DNA of 64,000 nucleotides from Alphaproteobacteria bacterium (GTDB taxonomy: Bacteria > Pseudomonadota > Alphaproteobacteria > UBA7887), in contig OZ243958.1 in NCBI GenBank assembly GCA_965214495.1, forward strand, positions 22,372 through 86,371, read 5' to 3'. Shown piece by piece: positions 15,309 to 41,273 of the stretch; position 1 is the stretch's first letter; every line of letters begins with the position of its first letter. A model generated the notes under the pieces. The model did no database searches, was not told where the DNA came from, and saw nothing but the letters and a program-made list of their open reading frames with translations. Both the position numbers and the translations under genes were made by a program.

Positions 15309-16030
15309 ATGGAATCTCCGATCGTACCGCGTCTTGGCCAATTGAAGCGGTTCTACGCTCTGTTGAGTTCGATCGAGGGACGGTTGAAGGGAACGCGCCG
15401 GCTGTCCGATTGCTCCGGTCGTATGCCGTGGCCCAAACGGGGCGTTTATTTCTTTTTCGAACCCGGTGAAGTCCGCACCGACAGCGGCGGCGGGCCGCGC
15501 GAGTGGTGCGGGTAGGTACACATGCCCTGAAGGCCGGCTCCGGCGCCACGCTCTGGGATCGTCTGTCGCAACACCGGGGACATGCGGGTAGCGGCGGTGG
15601 CAACCATCGCGGATCGATATTCAGGCTTATTGCAGGAACCGTACTGATGGGGAGGGACGGCCTCGATTGCCCGACCTGGGACAACGGTCTCGGGACCGCG
15701 CGGCCCGACGTTCGAGGCCGCGAGAAGCGTCTGGAGAGGGCCGTCAGCAAAGTGATCGGTGACATGCCGTTTCTATGGCTCGCCGTCGGGGACGACCCGG
15801 GTCCGGGCAGTCTGCGCGGATATATCGAGAGAAACGCGATCGCGCTCCTCAGTAACTACGGGAAACGAACCATCGACCCTCCCTCGCGTTTGTGGCTTGG
15901 CCGCCATTGCGACCGCGAGAAGGTGAGAGCTGCCGGGATGTGGAATTCCAACCATGTCGATGAGGGCTGCGATACGGCGTTCCTCGACACATTGGAGCGT
16001 TCGATTCAGCGAGTGGGGGAGACGAAATGA
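15309..16030 (+). pseudogene. GIY-YIG-like protein, frameshifted near 15500
   Basis: RGVYFFFEPGE (ORF 15231-15515) continues as VVRVGTHAL...TLWDRLSQHRG...NHRGSIFR...YIERNAIALL (ORF 15503-16030); shift inside ccgcgcgag. Confidence 0.65.
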
Positions 16031-22281: not shown

Positions 22282-24132
22282 TCAGAACCCGGGATCGTCG
22301 CTCGCGAGGTAAGCGATTTCTTCGGGAGTGCTGTCGCGGCCGAGAATCGCGTTGCGATGCGGGAAGCGGCCGAAGCGGGCGATGATCTCGCGGTGACGCC
22401 GCGCGTAGTCCGCCACCGTGTCGCCGGACAGGCGCTCGACCGCGAGAGCCAGACAACGGTCCTGGTCGGCCATCTTTTCCGAGTGCATGAACGGCATATA
22501 GAAGAACTGCCGCCATTCGTCGGTGAACGTGGCGTCGCGGTCGAAGCCCCACGCCGTCGCATGCGCCGCTAACGCGCGCGCGCGCGCGTCAGCGGCGAAC
22601 GAACGCGCATCGCCGCGATAGATGTTCCGGGGCGCCTGATCGAGCAGGATGATCAGGGCCAGACAGCCGCGTGCGTTGTCGCGCCAGTCCTCCAGCGTGC
22701 CCGCCGCGGCCCGTTCGCTCGCCGCGCCGAGGCGGTCGCGGACCAGCGCGTCGAAGCCCGGGTCTTTCCCGTACCAGCGTGCCGGCCCCGCTTCGTCGAA
22801 CCAGAACGCCAGCACTTCCTCGACCGTCGCTGCTGCGTCGCCGAAGACCCGGCGGAACAGCGTATCGACATGTTTCAGGTGGTGGTCGAGATCGAACAGG
22901 CCGTCGAGTGCGGCCGCGTCGAGGCGGCGCGAGATCTCCGCGTCCTCGCCGAGTGCGGTGCGAAAGTCCGTTCCTTCCTCGCGCCACACCCGCATGGCGT
23001 TGCGCTGGACCGCGGCGTAGGCGGACTCGCGGCTCATGCCGGCCTGGGTCAGCGCCAGCAACGCGCGCTGCGAGTGCACCAGCCCGCCGAGCAGGTCCAG
23101 GTTCCGACGCATCGCGTCCGGATACACCAGCAGCCTGTCGATCACCCCGGTCAGACGCACCAGCGCGAAGTCGAGCGTGGTCGTGGCGTCGGGCCCGATG
23201 CCGCGTTCGACCGATGAATGCGAGATGTCGCGCTCGTGCCAGAGCGCGACGTTTTCGAGCGCCGGGGCCACCGCCGCCCGCACCAGACGCGCGAGTCCCG
23301 TGAGGTTCTCCGAAAGCACCGGGTTGCGCTTGTGCGGCATGGCCGAAGACCCCTTCTGCCCTTCGGAGAAGAACTCTTCCGCCTCGCGCAGTTCGGTGCG
23401 CTGCAAATGCCGGATCTCGGTCGCCACGCGCTCGATCGATGCTGCGACGACACCGAGCGTGGCGAAGAACATCGCGTGCCGGTCTCGCGGAATCACCTGG
23501 GTCGAAATCGGCTCCACCGCGAGTCCGAAGGAGCGCGCGACATGGGCTTCCACCGCCGGGTCGATATCGGCGAAGGTCCCCACCGCCCCGGATATGGCGC
23601 AGGTAGCGATTTCCGCGCGCGCCGCCGCCAGGCGTTCCCGGTGGCGCGCGAATTCCGCCCATGCCTGGGCCAGTTTGAGGCCGAAGGTCGTCGGCTCGGC
23701 GTGAATGCCGTGGCTGCGGCCGATGCACGGCGTGCGTTGGTGCTCGCGTGCGCGCCGTTCCAACACGGTCAGCAGGGCGTCGATATCGGCAAGAAGGATA
23801 TCGGCGGCGCGGGTCAACTGAACGGCGAAACAGGTATCGAGCACGTCGGACGAGGTCATGCCCTGGTGCATGAACCGCGCTTCATCGCCGACATGCTCGG
23901 CGACGTTCGTCAGGAAGGCGATGACGTCGTGCCGGACCTCGCGCTCGATGGCGTCGATGCGCGCGATCTCGAAGCGGCCCCGTTCGGCGAGCGCGGCGGC
24001 GACGCCGGCGGGGATCGCGCCGAGCATCTCTTGTGCCTCGCAGGCATGGCGTTCGATGTCAAGCCAGATGCGGAACCGCGTTTCCGGCGCCCAGATCGCC
24101 GCCATTTCGGGGCGGGTGTAGCGGGGGATCAT
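22282..24132 (-). CDS. purB: Adenylosuccinate lyase fused in frame to a C-terminal DUF924 domain
   Basis: MIPRY, GRSHGIHAEP, GSSAMPHKRNP, WHERDISHSS; after the usual PurB end (FRRVFG) reads on into VLAFWF, LDQAPRNIYR, FYMPFMHSE, FGRFPHRNAILGR. Confidence 0.93.
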   Translation of the reverse strand: MIPRYTRPEMAAIWAPETRFRIWLDIERHACEAQEMLGAIPAGVAAALAERGRFEIARIDAIEREVRHDVIAFLTNVAEHVGDEARFMHQGMTSSDVLDTCFAVQLTRAADILLADIDALLTVLERRAREHQRTPCIGRSHGIHAEPTTFGLKLAQAWAEFARHRERLAAARAEIATCAISGAVGTFADIDPAVEAHVARSFGLAVEPISTQVIPRDRHAMFFATLGVVAASIERVATEIRHLQRTELREAEEFFSEGQKGSSAMPHKRNPVLSENLTGLARLVRAAVAPALENVALWHERDISHSSVERGIGPDATTTLDFALVRLTGVIDRLLVYPDAMRRNLDLLGGLVHSQRALLALTQAGMSRESAYAAVQRNAMRVWREEGTDFRTALGEDAEISRRLDAAALDGLFDLDHHLKHVDTLFRRVFGDAAATVEEVLAFWFDEAGPARWYGKDPGFDALVRDRLGAASERAAAGTLEDWRDNARGCLALIILLDQAPRNIYRGDARSFAADARARALAAHATAWGFDRDATFTDEWRQFFYMPFMHSEKMADQDRCLALAVERLSGDTVADYARRHREIIARFGRFPHRNAILGRDSTPEEIAYLASDDPGF

Positions 24133-28362: not shown

Positions 28363-30955
28363 ATGACTCCCGGTTTCCAAGTCGATTGGGAACAGTTGCT
28401 GCTGGTCTTTCTGCACGATCCGATCGACAAGGCGCTCGACATCAGGGGGCACGAGGCGCGCGCCGCGCGCTACGCCTCGACGGCGCTGGGGCGGACGGTT
28501 CGCCGCGAGGAGATGAAATCGACCGCGGCGCTCGCCGATCAATTGGCGGCGATCGCCGAACGGGTGCCGATGCCAACCGCGGGGGTTGGAGGTCGGCGCG
28601 CGGTTGCGCCCGCGAACGGAACGCTGACGGTCAACCATCCCGTCAGCGGAGAAGCGGGCGAGATCGATTGCCAACCCGTTGACGAAGCACGGATCGACCG
28701 GGCGGTCGCGGGGATCGTCGACGGGTGCGACACCCCCAGGCAACGCTTTCTCGCCCTCTGGCGTCTCCTGCCGGAGCGCGTCGAGGAGGCGTTCGGCGCC
28801 TGGATAACCCGGTTGCCGGCAGATACGCGGGTTCCGGACCACTCGCTCGTCAGCCATGCCGATATTGCCGCCGGGATCTGGGCCAGCCGCCAAAGCGTTC
28901 ACGGCGGGGCCTACCTTCTCTTTCGCGTTGGGGCCGGTGCAGACGTTCATCGAAGCCGCCCGTTCGGTGCGCGATCTGTGGACAGGCAGCGCCATCCTGT
29001 CGTGGCTCGCCTTCACGGCAATGCGACCGGTCATCGATTCGCTCGGTCCGACCTCGTTTGTCTACCCGTCGTTGAGCGGCAACCCGACGATGGATCTGTG
29101 GTTGCGGAGAGTTGCGGGAATCGACGGCGTTCCGATGCCGGAGCTGGAGGCACGCAAAAGCCCCTCGCTGCCGAACCGCTTCATCGCGGTGGTTCCCTGG
29201 GGAGCGAACGGCACCGATGCCAAGCGGTTGGCCGAGCAATGCGAGCGCTCGGTGCGGGAAGCCTGGAAGACGTCGGTCGCCGCCGTGCGCGGAGAACTCG
29301 CGCCGGAGCTGGCGGCAATCTGCCCGGACTGGGACCGGTTGTGGTCCGCGCAGACGGCCGATTTCTTCGAGGTCAGGACGACGGTGGTGCCGGAGCGCGC
29401 CCTCGACGACGAAACGATGGCGCGGTTGATCGGCGGCCGACCGTTCGACGAGGTCTGGCCCGACGCTGCCGCGATTCGGGCCCTTTCAAGCGCGATCCCG
29501 AGCGCCGACCGACCGTCCTACCGGCAAGACGCTGCCGGGCAGTGGCAGGCGCAATTGGAACTATCAGCCCGCGTCATGGACGCGAATCGCGCGATCCGCA
29601 AGGTGCCGGCAAACGGGGGAGGTGGCGATACGAGTGCGATGTCGCCGCCCAAATGCAGCCTGTTCGGCTCCTGGGAGCAGATGGGCCCGGCGAGTCTTCG
29701 AGAATCCGCATCGTTCTGGGACAACGCCGCCTCCCGGCTGAACGTGGACGGCGTGAGGCTGCGGACAGGGGAGCGTCTATGCGCTGTCGCGCTGGCAAAG
29801 CGGTTTGCGGGGCCCGCGTTCCTCGCCGGCGAGTTCGCTCTCGACCGCGCAAGTATGCGCTTCCCGGACACCGCGACGGTCTCGGCTGCGACATGGCTGC
29901 GCGAAGCGGGCATCGATCCCGACGCCGTTCGATCGACCTCTGGCGGGCGTTGGAGCGGGCGGTGGCTTCACGGTTCCGATGGCGAGGAGGAGCCCCCGCC
30001 GCGCGGTGTTGCGGCGAGGATCGAGGAGGCCGTGCGGGATCGAGGCAGACCGCCATCGTATTTCGCCGTTCTGAAGATGGACGGCGACGATATCGGCAGC
30101 TGGCTGCGCGGCGAGCGGTCTCCGCCGCTGAAGGAGGTGATGCATCCCGGGATCGTTACCTGGTTCCAGGGCATTGGCGGGACGGCGGTCGAAGCCGCCC
30201 TGGCCGCGCGCCGGCCCGTCGGTCCGGCCCTGCACGCGTCGATCAGCGAGATGCTCGGCGCGTTCGCGGCGCGCATTGCGCCGGAGATCGTGCGGCAGCA
30301 CGACGGGACGGTGATCTATTCCGGCGGCGACGACCTGCTCGCCTTGCTGCCCTCGGCGCGCGCCGTCGCCTGTGCGCAGGCGCTGAGGCAGGCGTTCCGC
30401 AGCGGGGCCGATGGCACCGCCTGGTGCGGGATGGGAACCCGCGCCACCGTATCGGCGGGCATCGCCTATGTACATCACATGGAGGATCTGCGCCTTGCGC
30501 TCCGGGCGGCGCGAGAGGCTGAAGCCCGGGCCAAGGCGGAAGGCAAGGACGCACTGCATCTGTACTTCATGCGCCGTTCGGGCGAAAATGCAGGCGCGAC
30601 CGTCGACTGGCCGCTGACGCCATGGTTCACCGAACTGACCGAGTTGTTCGCCTGCGACGCCAGCAGCCGCTGGACCTATCGGCTGCGGTCCGAGCAACCG
30701 GTTCTCGCAGGCCCGCATCTCCCTCCCGAGGCGGTCTCCGCAGAGATCCGCCGGCTGGGTGACCGCATCGATGATCGGCGTTGGGACGAACACGCTCTTC
30801 GCGCCGGCTGTTCCGCCGGCGAACTGATCCGGCGGTGGTGGGAACGCTACCGCGACGCCTTGCGCCGGCGGACGGCGATCGACGACGATTCGCTGCGCTC
30901 GTTCGTTACTCTCTGCCAGGGCGCAGCGTTCGTCGCCAGAGGCGGCGATGGATAG
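28363..30955 (+). pseudogene. cas10: Type III-B Cas10/Cmr2, frameshifted near 28915-28925
   Basis: N-part VFLHDPIDKAL...LPADTRVPDHS...AYLL; C-part in another frame SFALGPVQTFIEAARSVRDLWTGS, PSLPNRF, LKMDGDDIG, IYSGGDDLL (GGDD intact). Confidence 0.92.
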
Positions 30956-32036
30956 GTCGAACGGGACGGCGGCCGCGCCCGCGAACCGCCTGTTTCTCCA
31001 TATCGAGCCGCTCGATACGCTGTTCTTCCGCGACGCCCGCCCGTTCGATCCGGCGTCCCGGGCGGCGTCGGGCCTGCCGAGGCCGCAAACCCTCGCCGGC
31101 GCGCTACGCACCGCGATGCTCCGCGAGGCCGGAGTCGATCTGGACGCCGTGGCCGGGGGCGTGCGTCAGGGGCGGGGTTTCCAGGACGCCGCCGCGGCCG
31201 CGGGCGCCCTCGGCGGTGCCATCGGCGCGGTCCGGTTTGCCGGGCCCTGGTTCGCCCGGGACGAAAAACCCTTGTTTCCGGCCCCGGCGACGCTCAAACG
31301 GGAGCGGGAGAGCAAGGCCATCGTCCGCCTCGATCCCCTGAACAGCGCGTTGCCGGGGTGGGCCGCGCCGCAAGACGGCATGGTACCGTTGTGGCGCACC
31401 GGCCGCGGGCGCCTCGAGAACGCTGCGGGTTATCTCACATCGGACGGCATGACGCGGTTCCTGGACGGCGGTGTCCCCAACGAGATCGTTCCGGGTTCCG
31501 AGCTATTCGGCCATGACGACCGGACGGGCATCGCCGTGGACCCCGGCCGCGCAACCGCTGCGGAGGGCATGATCTATGCGGTCCGCATGCTGGCCCTGCG
31601 CCCCGGCGTGCGCCTGTGCGCCGAGCTTGCCGGGCCGGCCGAAGCATTGGACCTTTTCCCGTCGTTAGGCGCCCTCGTCGCGCTCGGCGGGGAGGGGCGG
31701 CGCGCGGTGGCGGTGCCGGCCGGGAAGCCGCCGACATTGCCGTCCGCCGATGCAGCGGACCGACGGCTGCTGGTGCTGACCGCGCCGGCGCCGCTCGACG
31801 GCTGGCTCCCGCGCGGACTGGCGCTCGCGGCGGCGGCCGTGCCCGGCCACGAAGCCGTGTCGGGTTGGGACCTCGCCCGCGGCGGACCCAAGCCTAACCG
31901 TTTCATGGTGCCGGCCGGGACGGTGTACTTTCTCAAGCCCGGCGCTGTTCTCCCGGATTCGCGATTGCCTGTCGATCCCGACGATCGCGCGCTCGGCTGG
32001 GGCAGCTATCTGGAGGGAAGCTGGACATATGCCTGA
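30948..32036 (+). CDS. cmr3: Type III-B Cas5-group protein Cmr3
   Basis: IEPLDTLFFRDARPF, PRPQTLAGALR, LGGEGR, SGWDLARGGPKP, VPAGTVYF, LGWG. Confidence 0.93.
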   Translation: MDRSNGTAAAPANRLFLHIEPLDTLFFRDARPFDPASRAASGLPRPQTLAGALRTAMLREAGVDLDAVAGGVRQGRGFQDAAAAAGALGGAIGAVRFAGPWFARDEKPLFPAPATLKRERESKAIVRLDPLNSALPGWAAPQDGMVPLWRTGRGRLENAAGYLTSDGMTRFLDGGVPNEIVPGSELFGHDDRTGIAVDPGRATAAEGMIYAVRMLALRPGVRLCAELAGPAEALDLFPSLGALVALGGEGRRAVAVPAGKPPTLPSADAADRRLLVLTAPAPLDGWLPRGLALAAAAVPGHEAVSGWDLARGGPKPNRFMVPAGTVYFLKPGAVLPDSRLPVDPDDRALGWGSYLEGSWTYA

Positions 32037-32622
32037 CTCCGCGTTGTTGTTCATTCACTGCCTGACCGGCCTGCACCCCGGCAGCGGCACGGCACTCGGC
32101 GTCGTCGACCTGCCAGTGCAGCGCGAGCGCCACACCCGGTGGCCGATCGTTCCGGGTTCGTCGCTCAAAGGCGTGTTGGAGGACAGCTTGCTGCGCGGCT
32201 ATCGGGTGCTGGAGCTCGTGGGACAGTTTCGTCTGTTCGACCGGCGCATCGACAGCGGCTCGATCGACCCGGAGGTGCCGGCCGTCGTCGCCTTGCGTGA
32301 GCGGCTTGGGACCAGTAGCGACTTCGGTATCGACCCGAAAAGCAAGCGTCTGACGGCGCCGCGAGAACTGGCAGCCCGCCTGCTCAACGAACTGGGCGAC
32401 CCGGTGGGCCGACAACTGCTCGGATTCGACGGCTCGGGTGACCGGATCCGCGCAAGGACGCGGAATCACAGCATCCTGATCCACGGCTTCGAGGCGTCGG
32501 CGCCGTCGGACGCCCCTTCCCTCGAAGCGCTATACGACGATCTAGAGCGCTTGCTTTGCGCGGCCGCGCCCGAAGCGGAGGAAATGCTTCTCCAAGCCAA
32601 GCGTCTCTCTTTTGACGGCTGA
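32029..32622 (+). CDS. Chimera: Cmr4 N-terminus (~50 aa) fused in frame to a HEPN RNase C-terminus (TIGR02710-like)
   Basis: LHPGSGTALGVVDLPVQRERHTRWPIVPGSSLKGVL is the Cmr4 start; at ~32179 it switches to DSLLRGYRVLELVGQFRL...RNHSILIHGF (HEPN-type RN..H motif). Confidence 0.8.
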   Translation: MPDSALLFIHCLTGLHPGSGTALGVVDLPVQRERHTRWPIVPGSSLKGVLEDSLLRGYRVLELVGQFRLFDRRIDSGSIDPEVPAVVALRERLGTSSDFGIDPKSKRLTAPRELAARLLNELGDPVGRQLLGFDGSGDRIRARTRNHSILIHGFEASAPSDAPSLEALYDDLERLLCAAAPEAEEMLLQAKRLSFDG

Positions 32623-32627
32623 CGGGA

Positions 32628-33665
32628 ATGCCGACCCTCTATGTGACCGAGCCGGGTGCCGTGGTGCGCCGCCGGGCGGGGTCGATCGTCGTCACCCTGG
32701 ACGAGGATCCCGACGGACCTGGGCCGTTGCCGAAAGGTCGGCGGCGCCTGATCGAGGTGGAGCCGCATCGACTGGAAATGATTGGCCTGATGGGCCGGGC
32801 GCACATCACCGCCGACGCGACGCGGCTCTGCCTGGAACAGGGGATCGCGGTGTCGTGGTTCACGCGTGGCGGCGACTTTCTCGGACGGCTGGTGCCGGAA
32901 CTGTCGCGAACGGCGGACCTTCGTCTGCGTCAGTTCCGGCTTGCCGACAACCCGGAGGCGGCGCTCGACCTTGCGCGCGCGTTCATCGACGCCAAGCTGC
33001 GAAACGCGGCCGCGATGATCCGCACCGTCCGGTCGAACCGCCCGCGAGAGGAGCGTTTCGCCGAGGTCATCGCCCGCCTGCCGCGCTTGCGGGAACAGCT
33101 TGCCGGCGCCCGGGCGCGCGACACGGTCATGGGGATCGAAGGCGACGGCACGCGGCGCTACTTCTCGGTCCTCGGGCTTGCGTTTTCCGGCCCGGTGGGT
33201 TTCGAGTCGCGGCAGCGGCGGCCGCCGCCGGACCCCGCCAACGCGCTTCTCTCGCTCGGCTACGTCCTGCTGGCGAACGCCTTGGCGAGCTTGCTCGAGG
33301 CGCGCGGTTTCGATCCCTATCTGGGATTCCTCCACACGGTCCGGTCGGGAAGGCCGAGCCTGGCGCTCGACCTGATGGAGGAACTGCGTCATCCGGTCGT
33401 GGATCGGTTCGTGCTTCGTCTCTGCAATCGGCGGCAGTTGACGCCGGAGCATTTCGAGGCCGACGTCGAGCGGGGCGGGATACGCCTGGTGCGGGACGGC
33501 TTTCGGCGCTTCCTCCGCGAATGGGAGCGCTATCTGGACGCGCCGATGGCGGGGATCGGCGGCGGATTGACGGTTGAACGGGCGATCGCGCGGCAGGCGG
33601 ATCGGCTCGCCGCGCGGGTTCGCGGCAAGGACGCATACGAGCCGCTCCTGTTGAACGGCGCGTGA
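32628..33665 (+). CDS. cas1: CRISPR-associated endonuclease Cas1
   Basis: MPTLYVTEPGA, MGIEG...RYF, RRPPPDPANALLSLGY, DPYLGFLH, SLALDLMEELR (catalytic E, H, D/E present). Confidence 0.96.
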   Translation: MPTLYVTEPGAVVRRRAGSIVVTLDEDPDGPGPLPKGRRRLIEVEPHRLEMIGLMGRAHITADATRLCLEQGIAVSWFTRGGDFLGRLVPELSRTADLRLRQFRLADNPEAALDLARAFIDAKLRNAAAMIRTVRSNRPREERFAEVIARLPRLREQLAGARARDTVMGIEGDGTRRYFSVLGLAFSGPVGFESRQRRPPPDPANALLSLGYVLLANALASLLEARGFDPYLGFLHTVRSGRPSLALDLMEELRHPVVDRFVLRLCNRRQLTPEHFEADVERGGIRLVRDGFRRFLREWERYLDAPMAGIGGGLTVERAIARQADRLAARVRGKDAYEPLLLNGA

Positions 33666-33674
33666 GGAGATGCG

Positions 33675-33959
33675 GTGGCAAGGTTCGTGGTCTGCTACGA
33701 CGTTTCGGACGACCGGCGACGGCGAAAGATTGCCGAGGTGCTCGACGCCTATGGCGACCGCGTCCAGGAAAGCGTGTTCGAGCTTCCGGTCGACGGCGTC
33801 TTGATGGACGAATGCGTGGCCGAGCTTGCGCAGGCGATTGGCCGCGACGATCATCTGGCGATATATCGGCTCTGTAAGGCGTGCGACGGCGCGCGACGTT
33901 ATCTCGGGGCGGCCGCCGACGTGCCGCGCATCGGCGAGGAGGAGGTTTTCATCGTTTGA
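33675..33959 (+). CDS. cas2: CRISPR-associated Cas2
   Basis: VVCYDVSDDRRRRKIAEVL, RVQESVFE, YRLCKAC; GAGGAG RBS. Confidence 0.95.
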   Translation: MARFVVCYDVSDDRRRRKIAEVLDAYGDRVQESVFELPVDGVLMDECVAELAQAIGRDDHLAIYRLCKACDGARRYLGAAADVPRIGEEEVFIV

Positions 33960-34156
33960 CCGGTGTATCGTATCCGCCGAGTGTCGATAACGCGGGGGAG
34001 GGTTACGACTCGACATTGGGCGTTGATTGGTCTAGAAAATCCGGGATACAGGCTGCTCCCGGCGAAGACGGTTCCGGCTTTTCCGGGGATCGCGCGGCGA
34101 GGTTACGACGGAGAAGGAGACAACACCTTGATATGACAGTCGGTTTTACGACCGCA
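33960..34156 (+). promoter_or_regulatory. CRISPR leader
   Basis: Non-coding ~200 bp between cas2 and the first perfect repeat; degenerate repeat is at the far end of the array. Confidence 0.7.
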
Positions 34157-37100
34157 GCCGAGCACGCCGCCCCGAAAAGGAGGGGATTGAAACTCGTTCG
34201 CGGCGATGCGGTCGTCGGCTACCTGTTCTCGCCGAGCACGCCGCCCCGAAAAGGAGGGGATTGAAACTCCGTGCAGATAGCGCCCGCGAGGAAGCGGATG
34301 CGGCGGCGCCGAGCACGCCGCCCCGAAAAGGAGGGGATTGAAACGCGGCAAATCGCCGCGCGGAGGATTTGCGGGAGAGGGTGCCGAGCACGCCGCCCCG
34401 AAAAGGAGGGGATTGAAACGCCGTTGAGCGTGGACCCGGCAGCGGACGGGTTGCTCGCGCCGAGCACGCCGCCCCGAAAAGGAGGGGATTGAAACTGGAG
34501 GGTCTTGAGGCCGGGATCATACAGCATCTCGATATCGCCGAGCACGCCGCCCCGAAAAGGAGGGGATTGAAACGACGGCCTCGCCAGCGTCCAGGCCGGC
34601 GGCTGATGGCCGAAGCCGAGCACGCCGCCCCGAAAAGGAGGGGATTGAAACCTTGCGGCGCCCTCGGTTGTGCCGTCGGCGGCGTTCACCTGCCGAGCAC
34701 GCCGCCCCGAAAAGGAGGGGATTGAAACCAAGCCCCGCCTGGCCCCGCCTCGCCAGGCCTCGCCGCGATGCCGAGCACGCCGCCCCGAAAAGGAGGGGAT
34801 TGAAACATCAGTCCTTTCTGCGACCCTCCGACCGCGACGTCCACCCGCCGAGCACGCCGCCCCGAAAAGGAGGGGATTGAAACTCGCGGCCCAGTTCATT
34901 GCCGAGCTGCCGAATCGCCTCCAGGCCGAGCACGCCGCCCCGAAAAGGAGGGGATTGAAACCCGGCGTCGATCACGACGTCCCCGCCAGCGGTCAGCGTG
35001 AGCCGAGCACGCCGCCCCGAAAAGGAGGGGATTGAAACCCGGCGTCGATCACGACGTCCCCGCCAGCGGTCAGCGTGAGCCGAGCACGCCGCCCCGAAAA
35101 GGAGGGGATTGAAACCCGGAAAAATCGACGAACTGCCGCGGCCGCGGCCAATGGTGCCGAGCACGCCGCCCCGAAAAGGAGGGGATTGAAACGGCATGCC
35201 GATCAGCTGCCCCTGCGGGGTCTGCGCGTCCAGGCCGAGCACGCCGCCCCGAAAAGGAGGGGATTGAAACGAATGGAGCGCTCGGACACGTCATAGGCGG
35301 TTGCGCTGTGCCGAGCACGCCGCCCCGAAAAGGAGGGGATTGAAACGCGCAACAACTGCCTGCGCGGCGCGAAAGAGTATGAGGAGCCGAGCACGCCGCC
35401 CCGAAAAGGAGGGGATTGAAACCGCAGCGCGCACGCGGCGCGCCAGGCCACGGTCGGTCGTCGCCGAGCACGCCGCCCCGAAAAGGAGGGGATTGAAACA
35501 TGAAGCGCAGGCCCGTCGTCAGCGAGTCGTAGTTGACGGCCGAGCACGCCGCCCCGAAAAGGAGGGGATTGAAACCACGCTGACCGCCGGCGGGGACGTC
35601 GTGATCGACGCCGGGGCCGAGCACGCCGCCCCGAAAAGGAGGGGATTGAAACCGGTTGCCCGCCGGGTCGTTCGGGAGGCTGTCCTTGCGGGCCGAGCAC
35701 GCCGCCCCGAAAAGGAGGGGATTGAAACGCCGAAGACGGCGCCGACGCCGCCCGCGCGCGAGTGGACGGCCGAGCACGCCGCCCCGAAAAGGAGGGGATT
35801 GAAACCCGATGAATTTCAGCGCGGTCGAGATCGAGGGCGTGCCCATGCCGAGCACGCCGCCCCGAAAAGGAGGGGATTGAAACAGCTCCAATTTCGGCGT
35901 CACCCTCGAGCTGCGCCATGCGCCGAGCACGCCGCCCCGAAAAGGAGGGGATTGAAACATGTTCGATCCTGCGCCGGGCCGGGCGCAACCTCGTCCGCCG
36001 AGCACGCCGCCCCGAAAAGGAGGGGATTGAAACATTCGAGGACTGACGCCATGGCCACTCTCGTCGACCTCTAGCCGAGCACGCCGCCCCGAAAAGGAGG
36101 GGATTGAAACGCCGAAGAACCGCTCGCGGTAACGGTCGCGCAGGGCCACGAGGCCGAGCACGCCGCCCCGAAAAGGAGGGGATTGAAACGGCGGATTCGG
36201 CCTATGCCGGCGCCCTGCGGGATCGGCGCGCCGAGCACGCCGCCCCGAAAAGGAGGGGATTGAAACGTCCAACGCGCCTATGCCCGCACCCAGCGGGTTG
36301 GTATGGCGCCGAGCACGCCGCCCCGAAAAGGAGGGGATTGAAACGTATCAGGTGCCGGATTCTGGGCACGTTCCGAGCTTGCCGAGGCCGAGCACGCCGC
36401 CCCGAAAAGGAGGGGATTGAAACATCGACCTGCGCTTGCGAGAGGCCCGCTGCGTTCCCCAGGCCGAGCACGCCGCCCCGAAAAGGAGGGGATTGAAACC
36501 GGCGTCACCCGCCAGATCGAAACCGACGAACGCACGCTGGGCCGAGCACGCCGCCCCGAAAAGGAGGGGATTGAAACTTCAGGCATCACCCGGGCGGCGC
36601 TGTCGGCTCTTCTGAACGGCCGAGCACGCCGCCCCGAAAAGGAGGGGATTGAAACCCTTCGAACTGCACGTCCACCACGGCCCCGATGACCTGGGCCGAG
36701 CACGCCGCCCCGAAAAGGAGGGGATTGAAACCGGTGCCGGGCAGAACGACGGTGACGACAACCGCAGTCGCCGAGCACGCCGCCCCGAAAAGGAGGGGAT
36801 TGAAACCCTTTCGCGGCCTCGGCCTCCTCGCCGACATCGAGCGCGGCCGCCGAGCACGCCGCCCCGAAAAGGAGGGGATTGAAACGCGCGTTCGCGTCAG
36901 CCCCTGCATCCAGCAACGCCGTGCCGAGCACGCCGCCCCGAAAAGGAGGGGATTGAAACGTCACGCTCAGCGGCGAGGATATGCGCGAAGGGCTCACCTG
37001 TGCCGAGCACGCCGCCCCGAAAAGGAGGGGATTGAAACCTCGATTCTCTTGTTCGTGTTGAAATTCATGGACGAAAGAATGAGCCGAGCACGCCGCCCCG

Positions 37101-37504
37101 AAAAGGAGGGGATTGAAACCGCCGGGGAAATGGTCACGGTCCGATCCGCCGGATCGTCACGCCGAGCACGCCGCCCCGAAAAGGAGGGGATTGAAACGCG
37201 ACGCTGAACTCGTCCTGACCGCGCCACGGGTAGGACGCCGAGCACGCCGCCCCGAAAAGGAGGGGATTGAAACCGCCACCGCAGCGCGGCCTTGTGCGTG
37301 GAAAGGGTGATGCCGAGCACGCCGCCCCGAAAAGGACGGGATTGAAACACCTCGAAGCCGTTGACGCGCATGATGTATTTGCTCGTGACCGCCGAGCACG
37401 CCGCCCCGAAAAGGAGGGGATTGAAACGTCGTGACGTAATGCTCGCGCGGCCCCGGCAGGACCCCGAGCCGAGCACGCCGCCTCGAAATGGAGGGGATCG
37501 GAGT
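34157..37504 (+). CRISPR. CRISPR array: 44 repeats of 37 bp (GCCGAGCACGCCGCCCCGAAAAGGAGGGGATTGAAAC), 43 spacers of ~37-44 bp
   Basis: Counted by hand; 3' ATTGAAAC handle, CCCC/GGGG hairpin, one SNP repeat (37312-37348), degenerate terminal repeat 37468-37504. Confidence 0.98.
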
Positions 37505-37688
37505 GAACGGCGCCGTCCAACTTCACGGTAGGATTGCAGGGCTCGTCGAGCTTGCCCCCCCCCCCCCTCCCCAGATCGAGGGGGTTAAACGCGACACGGC
37601 CGTTGCCGCGGCACGGACGCGACGATCCGAGTGAACGTCTCGGTCGGCGTCGCTTTTGCGCGGACGGTGCGGTTGTCCCTGCCGACGG

Positions 37689-38642
37689 TTACGGCGAGGT
37701 GATTTCGATTTGCCCGAGACCGAAGACGGTTCCCTTGCCCACATGGAGCCAATGGCCGGCGACAACGAGCGGCCACAACTCGCCCGCACCCTCCGGCAGG
37801 TCGAGAGAGCCGGCGACGCCGTGCATGTCGATCTCCCGGCGCTGGGTGCCGGACCAGCGGACGAAATCGCTCTGACCGCCCCGCCAGGCGGCGCAGGGGA
37901 CACGCGCCGCCGAAGCGAGAACCGCGTCAACCAGCATGCGCGCCCCGTCGATTTCGTCCCCGCCTCCCAGAGCGACGAGGCGGCGCACCGCCGCCAGGGC
38001 AATGTCGGCGAACGTCGGCCGATCGATCAGTCGGCCCCGCCTGAGAAGCCTGAGAGGGACTCTGAAATGCAGTCGAGCGCCGCCTTTCGTCAACGTTTCC
38101 CGGCGAATGGCATCGGCGGCCGCGCGCAGCGGCCAACGCCGTTCTTCGGACACGGCGGCCGAACGGCTGTCGAGCCAAAGCGTTCGTCTGACCCGGAACG
38201 GCTCCCGAACCGGCCCCAAACCCATGCCCGATGCGACGTCCCAGGCTTGGACGAGCACCTCCTCGAAACGTCGTGCCGGGCCGATCAGGAACCAATCCAG
38301 CGCAGGCGCGAATTTCGGATCCACGGGGGCGGGCCGGATCAGATATAACGGCGTGCGCTCCACGCCGCGCGGTGCTGCTCGTCTTCGACCCTCGAACACC
38401 CGTGCATATGCCTCCGTGTCGAGGTGCTTCAACGCCCGGCCCCAGATGCCCCGGAGCATCGGCGCGGTGGCTCGGACACCGCCCGTGTCGAGCACCAGAC
38501 GGCGCGGAGCAAGTTCGATCCGGTCGAGCAAACACAGGAGCCGCTGTTCCAGGCTCGGCGGCGATGCTGTTCCCCGATCGGCGTCGGCTTCGTCTCCGCT
38601 ACCTGATAGGACTTCCTTACCCATCCCGGGGTTATCCGGCAT
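37689..38642 (-). CDS. cas6: Cas6 crRNA-processing endoribonuclease
   Basis: MLRGIWGRAL, FRVPLRL, RWSGTQ, C-terminal G-rich loop HVGKGTVFGLG; convergent on the array; start uncertain. Confidence 0.88.
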   Translation of the reverse strand: MPDNPGMGKEVLSGSGDEADADRGTASPPSLEQRLLCLLDRIELAPRRLVLDTGGVRATAPMLRGIWGRALKHLDTEAYARVFEGRRRAAPRGVERTPLYLIRPAPVDPKFAPALDWFLIGPARRFEEVLVQAWDVASGMGLGPVREPFRVRRTLWLDSRSAAVSEERRWPLRAAADAIRRETLTKGGARLHFRVPLRLLRRGRLIDRPTFADIALAAVRRLVALGGGDEIDGARMLVDAVLASAARVPCAAWRGGQSDFVRWSGTQRREIDMHGVAGSLDLPEGAGELWPLVVAGHWLHVGKGTVFGLGQIEITSP

Positions 38643-39007
38643 TGCGCTTGCTCACGCGCAACGGGCCGGGACCGTTTCCATGCGGACGGCGGGGAAGCTG
38701 GATACACATCGGCAACCTCGGTCGCGTCCCGAGCCGTGGGTGCAAGATCCCGGCATCGCTTCGCGGTGTCTGGCGGCGTGGGTGCCTTGGACCGCTCGTT
38801 CGTCATTCAGCCTGACGAGGGCAGCGTCGATCGCCATGGCGCCGGAAACTCGAACAGGTTGCAGAAAGTATACGCCGCCGCTCGGCGGAGGAATATGGAT
38901 CCGTGGATCGAGTCTCGCTCGCCGACTGACCCCGTTCGACCAGATGAGGAACGCGGGGTTCGAAGTCGGGGTGACCCACCCGGCGGCGCGAGGACGGCGG
39001 CAGCCCG

Positions 39008-40213
<1,206 letters not shown>

Positions 40214-40349
40214 GGCAACCACAAGGGTTGCTCCAACGGAGACAAGGTCGTCGTGCCCCCGACACACGGCCGCCGAACCGACGCGGCCGGCCGGTCCCGA
40301 CCCGAGAACAACCCCGATTTCAGAATCGCCCGCCCGAGCCAGGCCCTGC

Positions 40350-40378
40350 TTGACGGTCGAACGGCAAAGCCCTATCGA
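40350..40378 (+). promoter_or_regulatory. Putative sigma70 promoter of tRNA-His
   Basis: TTGACG-N17-TATCGA ending 11 bp before the tRNA. Confidence 0.5.
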
Positions 40379-40389
40379 AATGCCGTCGT

Positions 40390-40467
40390 GGCGAGTGTAG
40401 CTCAGTTGGTCAGAGCGCCTGACTGTGACTCAGGAGGTCGTCGGTTCGAGACCGATCACTCGCCCCA
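40390..40467 (+). tRNA. tRNA-His(GTG)
   Basis: G-1 plus GCGAGTG/CACTCGC stem, C73, CCA; anticodon arm CCTGA-CTGTGAC-TCAGG. Confidence 0.95.
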
Positions 40468-40505
40468 TCGACGGGCGCCGGCACGAACGCACACGGGAGG
40501 ACGGC

Positions 40506-41273
40506 ATGACGGGACGGCTTGACGGCAAGGTGGCGGTCGTCACCGGCGCCGGTTCGGGCTTCGGCGAAGGCATCGCCAGGCGTTATGCGCGCGAAGGTGC
40601 GCGGGTGGTGGTGGCCGAGATCGACGAGCGCAACGGCCGGCGGGTCGCCGACGACATCGCCGCGTCCGGCGGCGCGGCAGTGTTCGTGGCCACCGACGTC
40701 GCCGAAGAGGCCGCCAACGAAGCCATGATCGCCGCTGCCCGCGACTCCTGGGGCGGGATCGATACGGTCGTTCTCAACGCCGGGCTGGGCATGGCGCCGC
40801 GGCCGCTCGCCGATACCGAGGTGGCGTTCTTCGACCGGGTGTTCCGGGTCAACGTGCGCAGTGTTTTTCTTGGCGCGAAGCACGCGGTCCGGGCGATGCA
40901 AGCTCAGGGCCGCGGCGGTTCGATCGTCGTCACTGCGTCCACCGCCGCGTTGCGGCCGCGGCCGAACCTTGCCGTGTATAACGCGACCAAAGGCGCGCTG
41001 GTGCCGATGTGCAAGGCGCTGGCGCTGGAAGTGGCGGGCGACGGGATTCGCGTCAACGGCATTTGCCCGGTCGCCGGCGAAACCGCCATGCTGACGGATT
41101 TTCTCGGCGATTCCGACCCGACCGAGGGGCGCGCGCGGTTCGTCGCCACCGTGCCCATGGGCCGTCTGTCGACGCCGGAGGACATCGCCGCCGCCGCAGT
41201 ATTCTTCGCCGAAGACGACTCGGCTTTCATCACAGGCGCCATGCTCGAGGTGGATGGCGGGCGCTGTATCTGA
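40506..41273 (+). CDS. Short-chain dehydrogenase/reductase
   Basis: TGAGSGFG, LNAG, YNATK, VDGGR. Confidence 0.92.
   Translation: MTGRLDGKVAVVTGAGSGFGEGIARRYAREGARVVVAEIDERNGRRVADDIAASGGAAVFVATDVAEEAANEAMIAAARDSWGGIDTVVLNAGLGMAPRPLADTEVAFFDRVFRVNVRSVFLGAKHAVRAMQAQGRGGSIVVTASTAALRPRPNLAVYNATKGALVPMCKALALEVAGDGIRVNGICPVAGETAMLTDFLGDSDPTEGRARFVATVPMGRLSTPEDIAAAAVFFAEDDSAFITGAMLEVDGGRCI

Follow-up and report, generated by a model that had tools for sequence, protein, structure and literature searches.

The type III-A clustered regularly interspaced short palindromic repeat (CRISPR) system of Streptococcus thermophilus requires only Cas1 and Cas2 for adaptation, and its spacer uptake is described as independent of orientation and of a protospacer-adjacent motif (PAM), with most new spacers coming from the host genome (PMC8860593). 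According to the same source, the wild type exhibits a bias against transcript-complementary spacers, and a csm1-6 deletion strain exhibits a 53%/47% split. In the survey of Stern et al. 2010, as cited in PMC6990116, self-targeting spacers made up 0.4% of spacers and occurred in 18% of genomes, and PMC7708048 ties many self-targeting spacers to prophages. Here we report on the CRISPR array of a type III-B (Cmr) locus in a 64,000-nucleotide stretch of an alphaproteobacterial genome (contig OZ243958.1, positions 22,372 to 86,371 of the forward strand), designated as the window. Fifteen of the 43 spacers (35%) match the chromosome of the same genome over their full length with 100% identity. Judging from the sequences, this composition is probably the product of continued and unpurged spacer uptake by intact Cas1-Cas2 and leader, once the Cmr effector had been inactivated by an internal deletion.

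The window array resembles that of the csm1-6 deletion strain of S. thermophilus JIM8232 (NAR 2021, PMC8860593) in PAM-free uptake, in the use of both orientations, in the lack of a strand bias, and in having the host chromosome as a major spacer source. Spacers are 32-42 bp long in JIM8232 and 37-44 bp in the window array. While the JIM8232 data derive from a laboratory deletion and population deep sequencing, the window holds a natural III-B deletion and the record of 43 spacers in one genome. The structured-DNA preference reported for JIM8232 was not seen at the 15 window sites, where the folding energy of 80 nt of DNA was no different from that at 1500 random sites (p 0.28), although this comparison is underpowered. 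As in the cases of Stern et al. 2010 described in PMC6990116, perfect self matches lie beside lost interference genes and include non-mobile chromosomal targets, but the self share is 35% in the window array against 0.4% of all spacers in that survey. Lactobacillus acidophilus NCFM, discussed in PMC6990116, has no cas cassette, whereas the window locus has lost the effector core only, has kept adaptation and processing, and has a self spacer as its youngest. In apparent contrast to the prophage link of PMC7708048, metabolism or housekeeping is the role of the genes hit at 10 or more of the 15 sites (atpD, gyrB, pyrG, pyrD, addB and the genes for glutamate dehydrogenase, the aminotransferase, the nosR-like protein, the RND transporter and the LAB_N protein). 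The III-B system of Marinomonas mediterranea (eLife 2017, PMC5576922) shares the subtype and the either-orientation uptake with the window locus; the former has a reverse-transcriptase (RT) domain joined to Cas1, as in other RT-Cas1 systems, while the latter has none. A literature search turned up no type III array from nature in which the share of self spacers is similarly high, but it was too narrow to claim that none has been described. This kind of event is already known, and the window array is an unusually clear natural case of it.

The array lies on the plus strand. Its position, 34157-37504, and its number of spacers, 43, agree with the first-pass annotation, which was made from the window sequence alone. 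The 44 repeats are 37 nt long (GCCGAGCACGCCGCCCCGAAAAGGAGGGGATTGAAAC), and the spacers measure 37-44 nt, with a mean of 40. Repeats 1-41 and 43 are identical and repeat 42 has one mismatch, while the last repeat (44) has six; from this degeneration, position 37504 is the trailer end of the array, and the leader occupies 33960-34156. The repeat contains a CCCC/GGGG hairpin followed by ATTGAAAC, the predicted 8-nt 5' tag of the CRISPR RNA (crRNA). An 8-nt stretch 3' of the hairpin is the usual crRNA tag of Cas6-processed repeats.

The self spacers are numbers 1, 9, 10, 13, 17, 26, 27, 29, 31, 32, 33, 34, 35, 36 and 37 (Table 1). They were found by blastn-short against the genome, a single contig of 3,261,019 bp, counting matches outside the array, and an independent second search recovered the same 15 of 15. 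E-values of 1e-15 to 1e-18 per spacer exclude chance. The first-pass annotation had recognized three of them by translation, and its peptides were reproduced exactly: QVIGAVVDVQFE for spacer 33 (reverse complement), VTLSGEDMREGLTC for spacer 37 (forward) and VDVAVGGSQKGL for spacer 9 (reverse complement). Its assignment of these spacers to atpD, gyrB and a class-V aminotransferase was borne out by the full-length nucleotide matches and by the family scores of the targets (atpD, TIGR01039, E 1.9e-247; gyrB, NF011501, E 0; aminotransferase, NF045640, E 8.7e-131), and the comparison of all spacers with their own genome, which it had proposed, gave more self matches than it had claimed. The target genes were assigned by a six-frame search at each site against NCBIfam and Pfam. 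The sites are scattered over the genome from 0.10 to 3.18 Mb, and all 15 are unmutated. The HerA-like, higA, ankyrin and spacer-31 targets could be accessory genes.

A self spacer is called antisense when its crRNA would pair with the target mRNA. Eight of the 14 assignable self spacers are antisense and six are sense (binomial p 0.79; spacer 31 left out), so that, with the targets assumed to be transcribed, there is no bias against transcript-complementary spacers. No PAM or enriched base was found in the 12 nt on either side of the 15 protospacers, and no upstream flank among the 15 sites matched the 8-nt tag (best, 5/8). The sites thus show neither a PAM nor tag-based protection. Strand bias and flanking motifs were among the checks that the first-pass annotation had named.

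With regard to the source of the self spacers, the targets have orthologues in five genomes of the same genus at no more than 98% identity (atpD, 93-98%; spacer-26 target, 89-92%; addB, 79-86%; pyrG, 85%). Because identity of 100% occurs only in the own genome, the spacers were derived from the own lineage or from identical siblings; DNA of clonal siblings is indistinguishable, by sequence, from DNA inside the cell as a source. Of the two origins that the first-pass annotation had left side by side, the cell itself and neighboring cells, self stands, and cells of other species do not fit. The remaining 28 of the 43 spacers are non-self, and their mean GC content of 0.68 equals that of the genome. 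The phage or plasmid copies that the annotation had considered did not emerge: a blastn search of the whole array against 50,697 phage and 72,556 plasmid records returned nothing usable, with one weak match of about spacer length in each set (85.7% and 80.7% identity, respectively). Exact cores of 26-30 nt from five of the 28 non-self spacers (11, 38, 5, 25 and 42) had 0 matches in viral_contigs, and those of spacers 11 and 38 had 0 matches in metagenome_contigs; exact-core matching misses diverged targets, and the other 23 non-self spacers were outside these scans. Likewise, the non-self spacers had no convincing match in 60 relatives (best four candidates per genome) and no match in the five same-genus genomes (best 40 candidates scored).

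Spacers 11 (34962-35001) and 12 (35039-35078) are identical, and spacer 19 (35576-35615) corresponds to their reverse complement with a 1-nt shift and one mismatch. The site has no match in the own genome. One foreign site was therefore taken up both ways, which indicates orientation-free integration.

The locus was typed as III-B (Cmr) by Cas10/Cmr2, Cmr3, Cas6 and the hairpin/8-nt-tag repeat, all of which are present. Cmr2 has the GGDD cyclase motif at residue 490 and is 61% identical over 692 aa to Cmr2 of G001, a genome of the same genus with an intact locus; an HD domain was not detected in it by family profile searches. Cmr3 is 57% identical to its G001 counterpart. The backbone RAMP and target RNase, Cmr4, is represented by model positions 2-52 of 283 only, in a fusion open reading frame (ORF) that continues as the HEPN end of the CARF protein. 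Residues 1-50 of this ORF are 92% identical to the N-terminus of G001 Cmr4, and residues 48-172 are 42% identical to residues 352-476 of the G001 CARF protein. Profile matches agree with this division (TIGR02580 (Cmr4) positions 2-52/283 and TIGR02710 positions 263-364/384; in PADLOC, Cmr4 2-52/283 and Csx1 244-354/365). The deletion spans from about codon 51 of cmr4 to about codon 350 of the CARF gene, with about 4.2 kb missing relative to G001, a size calculated from the alignment ends, and has removed the rest of cmr4, cmr5, the cmr6/cmr1 fusion and the CARF domain. Family profile searches detected no cmr5, cmr6 or cmr1 ORF between cmr3 and cas1, and the copies of these genes at other places in the genome are of a separate lineage. 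The first-pass annotation was thus right that the Cmr module is broken: cmr4 is cut at about 50 codons and fused to the HEPN part, and cmr5, cmr6 and cmr1 are missing from the locus. The fusion ORF retains the HEPN catalytic motif RNxSIxxHG, while the CARF sensor domain is gone.

The adaptation module (cas1, cas2, leader and array) appears intact from its sequence, with full-length genes, and the annotation's view of cas1, cas2 and cas6 as intact held for all three. Cas1 is 80% identical to that of G001. Residues of about 31-317 of Cas6 align to homologues in G001 and eight related loci, and a single tblastn hit indicates that this is the sole copy of that Cas6 in the genome. Upstream of the III-B locus lie glnB and glnA. 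Four sequencing runs of one study contain part of the stretch as short contigs, one of them identical to the window over 31900-34186; the assembly may have been built from these runs, which offer no independent support, and gaps in their cover of the array carry no meaning. Among the runs listed as containing the stretch, none was of RNA.

Table 1. Features of the III-B locus, self spacers of the window array with their target sites, and other CRISPR arrays of the genome. Positions refer to the window unless marked as genome positions.
Feature	Position	Strand	Size, content or target site	Assignment
cmr2 (cas10)	28856..30955	+	699 aa, open	PF22335, PF12469, TIGR02577 (E 1.5e-62)
cmr3	30948..32036	+	362 aa, open, full length	PF09700 E 1.4e-60, profile 2-367/367
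Deletion-scar fusion ORF	32029..32622	+	197 aa, in frame	Cmr4 N-terminus + CARF-protein HEPN C-terminus
cas1	32628..33665	+	345 aa	PF01867 E 1.7e-87; TIGR00287 positions 1-327/327
cas2	33675..33959	+	94 aa, full length	PF09827, TIGR01573
Leader	33960..34156	+	two GTTACGA motifs	motifs kept in alignment of 10 leaders
cas6	37689..38642	-	317 aa, full length	PF10040; PADLOC Cas6 E 2.6e-51, positions 24-279/281
Spacer 1 (youngest)	34194..34230	+	genome 2731584-2731620, 100%	nosR-like gene, sense
Spacer 9	34807..34846	+	genome 3053336-3053375, 100%	BhcA-like class-V aminotransferase, antisense
Spacer 10	34884..34924	+	genome 1010675-1010715, 100%	pyrG (CTP synthase), antisense
Spacer 13	35116..35155	+	genome 714985-715024, 100%	large NAD-glutamate dehydrogenase, sense
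Spacer 17	35423..35462	+	genome 1356052-1356091, 100%	addB, antisense
Spacer 26	36111..36152	+	genome 1253432-1253473, 100%	probable efflux adaptor subunit (weak family match), antisense
Spacer 27	36190..36229	+	genome 3183951-3183990, 100%	3' end of LAB_N-domain gene and bases beyond, antisense
Spacer 29	36345..36386	+	genome 1716631-1716672, 100%	HerA-like ATPase gene, sense
Spacer 31	36500..36540	+	genome 1972904-1972944, 100%	three overlapping frames, no family match
Spacer 32	36578..36618	+	genome 2167656-2167696, 100%	higA antitoxin gene, sense
Spacer 33	36656..36694	+	genome 2170033-2170071, 100%	atpD near 5' end, antisense
Spacer 34	36732..36769	+	genome 681081-681118, 100%	RND/MMPL-type transporter gene, antisense
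Spacer 35	36807..36848	+	genome 216134-216175, 100%	pyrD, sense
Spacer 36	36886..36922	+	genome 103506-103542, 100%	ankyrin-repeat protein gene, antisense
Spacer 37 (oldest self)	36960..37001	+	genome 315549-315590, 100%	gyrB, sense
Type I-G array	genome 1287280-1306385		262 repeats; cas3g, cas8g2, cas7g, cas4/cas1, cas2	self 0/261
Two type I-E arrays	genome 1.81 Mb		52 + 19 repeats	self 0/69
Type II-C (Cas9) array	genome 2.70 Mb		35 repeats	self 0/34
Type IV-A array	genome 979093-983020		59 repeats; DinG, Cas7, Cas5, Cas6	self 10/57 (18%)

Relatives of the locus were found with Cas1 as the query. The full operon, cmr2-cmr3-cmr4-cmr5-cmr6/cmr1 fusion-CARF/HEPN-cas1-cas2-array, is present in G001 and in eight of nine more distant loci, the eight being loci of metagenome-assembled genomes (L064-L070 and L072). 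These intact loci and the window locus have the same gene order, a 37-nt repeat family ending in GGGGATTGAAAC (…CCCCG-N8-GGGGATTGAAAC in G001 and the eight loci), a common Cas6 and common leader motifs, but the intact loci keep cmr4, cmr5, the cmr6/cmr1 fusion and a full CARF-HEPN gene, which the window locus has lost. Their arrays were examined with the same search that recovers 15 of 15 self matches in the window array. G001, with about 50 spacers, had no perfect self match and one 36-nt match at 97%, and G422, with 46 spacers and all 21 candidates scored, had one perfect and two imperfect self matches. G421 had no perfect self match in the tested part of its array, a weak control since a repeated element just beyond that part accounted for most of the 40 scored candidates.

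The window leader shares two GTTACGA motifs with the leaders of L025, L064-L070 and L072; one lies some 45-50 nt ahead of the first repeat and the other some 145-150 nt ahead of it. Their conservation makes them candidate leader-recognition elements of this III-B locus family.

The genome carries five further CRISPR arrays (Table 1), and a self match was defined in all of them by the same test, at least 80% coverage and at least 85% identity. The difference between 15/43 in the window array and 0/364 in the I-E, I-G and II-C arrays taken together is significant (Fisher p 1.8e-16); the II-C array has one weak 26-nt match in the own genome, which is under the thresholds. In this genome, only arrays with a broken or non-nuclease effector contain self spacers. 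Within one cell, the self share is 35% in the array with the deleted effector, 18% in the nuclease-free IV-A array and 0/364 in the nuclease-served arrays, and these within-genome controls make the locus an unusually clean natural experiment. Self/non-self discrimination and the autoimmune cost are normally hidden because the cells that take up self spacers die. Judging from the present distribution, cells seem to take up their own DNA frequently, with normal arrays kept clean by purging rather than by discrimination at uptake. The genome also provides a tractable system for guide borrowing by an array-less Cmr module, for bursts of self uptake and for the feeding of a IV-A array.

From the trailer to the leader, the window array holds six non-self spacers (43-38) followed by seven consecutive self spacers (37-31). 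Ten of the 12 spacers at positions 26-37 are self, as are five of those at the 25 younger positions, the youngest (spacer 1) included. The clustering of self spacers gave a scan permutation p of 0.004 (post hoc), and a rank test of their position along the array was not significant (p 0.31). Since self spacers extend from position 37 to position 1, uptake continued without effective interference; the annotation's statement that the hits span the old and the young ends of the array was accordingly correct. Its description of the locus as an acquisition-only recorder was right as to uptake without effective interference, but the record is better seen as a by-product than as a function. A distance of 2.4 kb separates the targets of the adjacent spacers 32 and 33, which share their orientation, and among the 23 single-copy targets of the window and IV-A arrays there are three protospacer pairs less than 3 kb apart against 0.46 expected (p 0.012). 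The neighboring targets hint at local hot spots or at one fragment sampled twice.

Under the proposed mechanism, a single internal deletion would have disabled the III-B effector, with cas1, cas2, the leader, cas6 and the array left in place. Cas1-Cas2 would then take up 37-44-bp DNA fragments in either orientation and without a PAM, and a large share of the sampled DNA would be the cell's own chromosome. Under an active type III system, a cell with a spacer whose crRNA pairs to an expressed transcript of its own would be lost, whereas at the window locus the crRNAs would have no acting effector and self spacers would persist. Uptake presumably continued after the deletion, as judged from polarized leader-end integration and from antisense spacers against atpD, pyrG and addB that are older than 8-32 others. 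We also infer that the spacer DNA came from within the cell and that no effector in trans loads the window-array crRNAs. Several observations weigh against this interpretation. Unbiased uptake should give a stronger self dominance than 28 non-self spacers out of 43 allow. The clustering of the self spacers implies episodic uptake, and the simple model does not predict episodes. The order of events assumes leader-end integration, and the array is also subject to rearrangement, as is evident from the identity of spacers 11 and 12. Finally, a complete Cmr module at 2.11 Mb, together with similar crRNA tags, gives the use of the window-array crRNAs in trans some small probability.

Because the genome holds a complete Cmr module in addition to I-E, I-G, II-C and IV-A systems, it is not effector-less, and normal use of the array by an effector encoded elsewhere, which the first-pass annotation had named, jointly with a majority of spacers hitting mobile elements, as fatal to its reading, had to be examined. 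Searches with RAMP and further families revealed two additional type III-B regions. The complete module, at genome positions of about 2111113-2118855 (L042:7113-14855, minus strand), comprises cmr1-cmr6 and a full CARF-HEPN gene; all seven genes are open, Cas10 has GGDD, and the N-terminal motif of Cmr4 is conserved. No array, cas6 or cas1/2 was found within the 20-kb stretch examined around it, and IS66 fragments lie beside it. The proteins of the module share only 27-37% identity with their counterparts in the window-locus family, and relatives of its Cmr4 are present in five of 400 genomes of the class. The closest relative found (38-52% identity) is that of G296, where cmr1-6 lie inside a type I-G operon (cas3g-cas8g-cas7g-cmr1..6-cas4/cas1-cas2-array) whose array repeat closely resembles the I-G repeat of the present genome. 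This one example suggests that the 2.11-Mb module may draw its guides from the I-G array and not from the window array. The predicted crRNA 5' tags are ATTGAAAC for the window array and ATTGAAGG for the I-G array, which differ in the last two bases.

The rival explanations concern the cause of the deletion, the fate of the crRNAs and the source of the DNA. It is possible, although we hold this with reserve, that autoimmunity came first: a self spacer whose crRNA paired with a transcript of the cell was acquired by the intact system, the survivors were cells that had deleted the region from cmr4 to the CARF gene, and later self spacers were neutral. This account differs from continued uptake after the deletion only in what caused the deletion. 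The spacer order would suit it, the oldest six spacers (38-43) being non-self and the next seven (37-31) self, with antisense ones from spacer 36. Precedents are L. acidophilus NCFM, in which six spacers target the genome and the cas cassette is deleted (PMC6990116, citing Stern et al. 2010), and the escape from type III-A self-targeting through cas mutations, also described in PMC6990116. However, the deletion cannot be ordered relative to spacers 37-33 by sequence and a deletion that came first fits equally well, and the loss of one spacer by recombination between repeats would have been a cheaper escape. A different proposal, which appears improbable, is that crRNAs of the window array, processed by Cas6, are used in trans by the 2.11-Mb Cmr/CARF-HEPN module for regulation, conditional arrest or induced suicide. 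The module is open in its seven genes, has the GGDD and Cmr4 motifs and lacks an array and cas6 of its own in 20 kb, and the two tags differ in their last two bases only. Yet eight of the 14 assignable self spacers would yield crRNAs complementary to the cell's own mRNAs, including those of atpD, pyrG and addB, the targets are free of mutations and the strands show no bias, whereas an active type III effector counter-selects such spacers according to PMC8860593. The undepleted antisense spacers and unmutated targets form the stronger argument against an active effector with window-array crRNAs; the 27-37% identity to the window-locus family and the I-G operon of G296 point in the same direction. 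Thus, the annotation's suggestion to look for another effector locus did uncover a complete one, but the evidence speaks against its use of the window array. There is an equally slim chance that the truncated locus has been kept as a spacer-writing and crRNA-processing unit that supplies guides to this module. If so, the self crRNAs would constitute a poised set, silent while the 2.11-Mb module is repressed, and induction of the module by infection or stress would lead to cyclic oligoadenylate (cOA) signalling and growth arrest; the set would then be an abortive switch built into the cell and not junk memory.

Linear DNA of clonal siblings, released by lysis or delivered by transformation, conjugation or transduction, is an unlikely source of the self spacers. 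Free DNA ends are favored adaptation substrates in types I and II (PMC8860593), and sampling of such fragments would account for the neighboring targets of spacers 32 and 33 and the three close pairs. However, a double-strand break in the cell's own chromosome would explain neighboring protospacers equally well, a donor would need identity at all 15 sites while congeners reach no more than 98%, and the RcGTA-type markers PF09343 and PF09931 had no match in the genome in a search with a positive Caulobacter control. It is more doubtful still that mature crRNAs antisense to atpD, the aminotransferase gene and others act alone as regulators. The intact cas6 and repeats mean that crRNAs could be made, but the targets have no functional theme and six of 14 spacers are sense, relatives with intact loci are almost free of self spacers, and no selection on particular spacers is visible; the annotation's idea of crRNAs as regulators therefore gains nothing from this random-looking set of targets in both orientations. 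We give almost no credence to a route in which spacers are copied from RNA by an RT-Cas1 protein. RT-Cas1 spacer uptake, found in some type III-B loci, would favor highly expressed genes, and atpD and gyrB are probably well expressed. Nevertheless, Cas1 here (345 aa) fits the plain Cas1 model over the whole length of that model, a scan of ORFs within 28856-40522 revealed no RT domain, and the targets include a gene end with downstream bases as well as low-profile genes.

Type IV-A systems are described as having no acquisition module and as having DinG in place of a nuclease. Spacer acquisition in trans has been reported for them (bioRxiv 10.1101/2023.06.23.546257), as has nuclease-independent suppression of expression (PMC11519345). 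In the present genome, the type IV-A cas genes (L040:275-4991, minus strand) encode DinG/Csf4, Cas6, Csf2 and Csf3 and are not accompanied by cas1 or cas2. The 10 self spacers of the IV-A array are all perfect matches, and their targets include a parE/gyrB-like gene, tpiA, dnaJ, a multi-copy DDE transposase gene and one 2-oxoacid:ferredoxin oxidoreductase gene targeted by two spacers. The protospacers have a common 3' flank near NNGCAC. One of them, the perfect protospacer of IV-A spacer 34, lies in the window at 15546-15576 (genome 37917-37947), where the overlapping ORFs had no Pfam match. The IV-A spacers are 29-31 nt long, as are those of the II-C array; conceivably, the IV-A array is fed in trans by the adaptation genes of the II-C system.

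The other additional III-B region, at genome positions 1394873-1399994 (L041:6877-11994), is a degraded remnant: its Cmr4 fragment is interrupted by a stop, and an IS4 transposase and Cmr6 accompany it. Identity of this remnant to the 2.11-Mb module is 52-54%. A repeat scan also detected a 51-nt periodic stretch of 21 copies at genome positions 1439000-1441000 and repeats of 66 and 72 nt at about 10 places, which are probably coding or intergenic tandem repeats and not CRISPR arrays. In the window, a single ORF at 22282-24132 (minus strand) combines an adenylosuccinate-lyase-type lyase (Lyase_1, ADSL_C) with a DUF924 domain.

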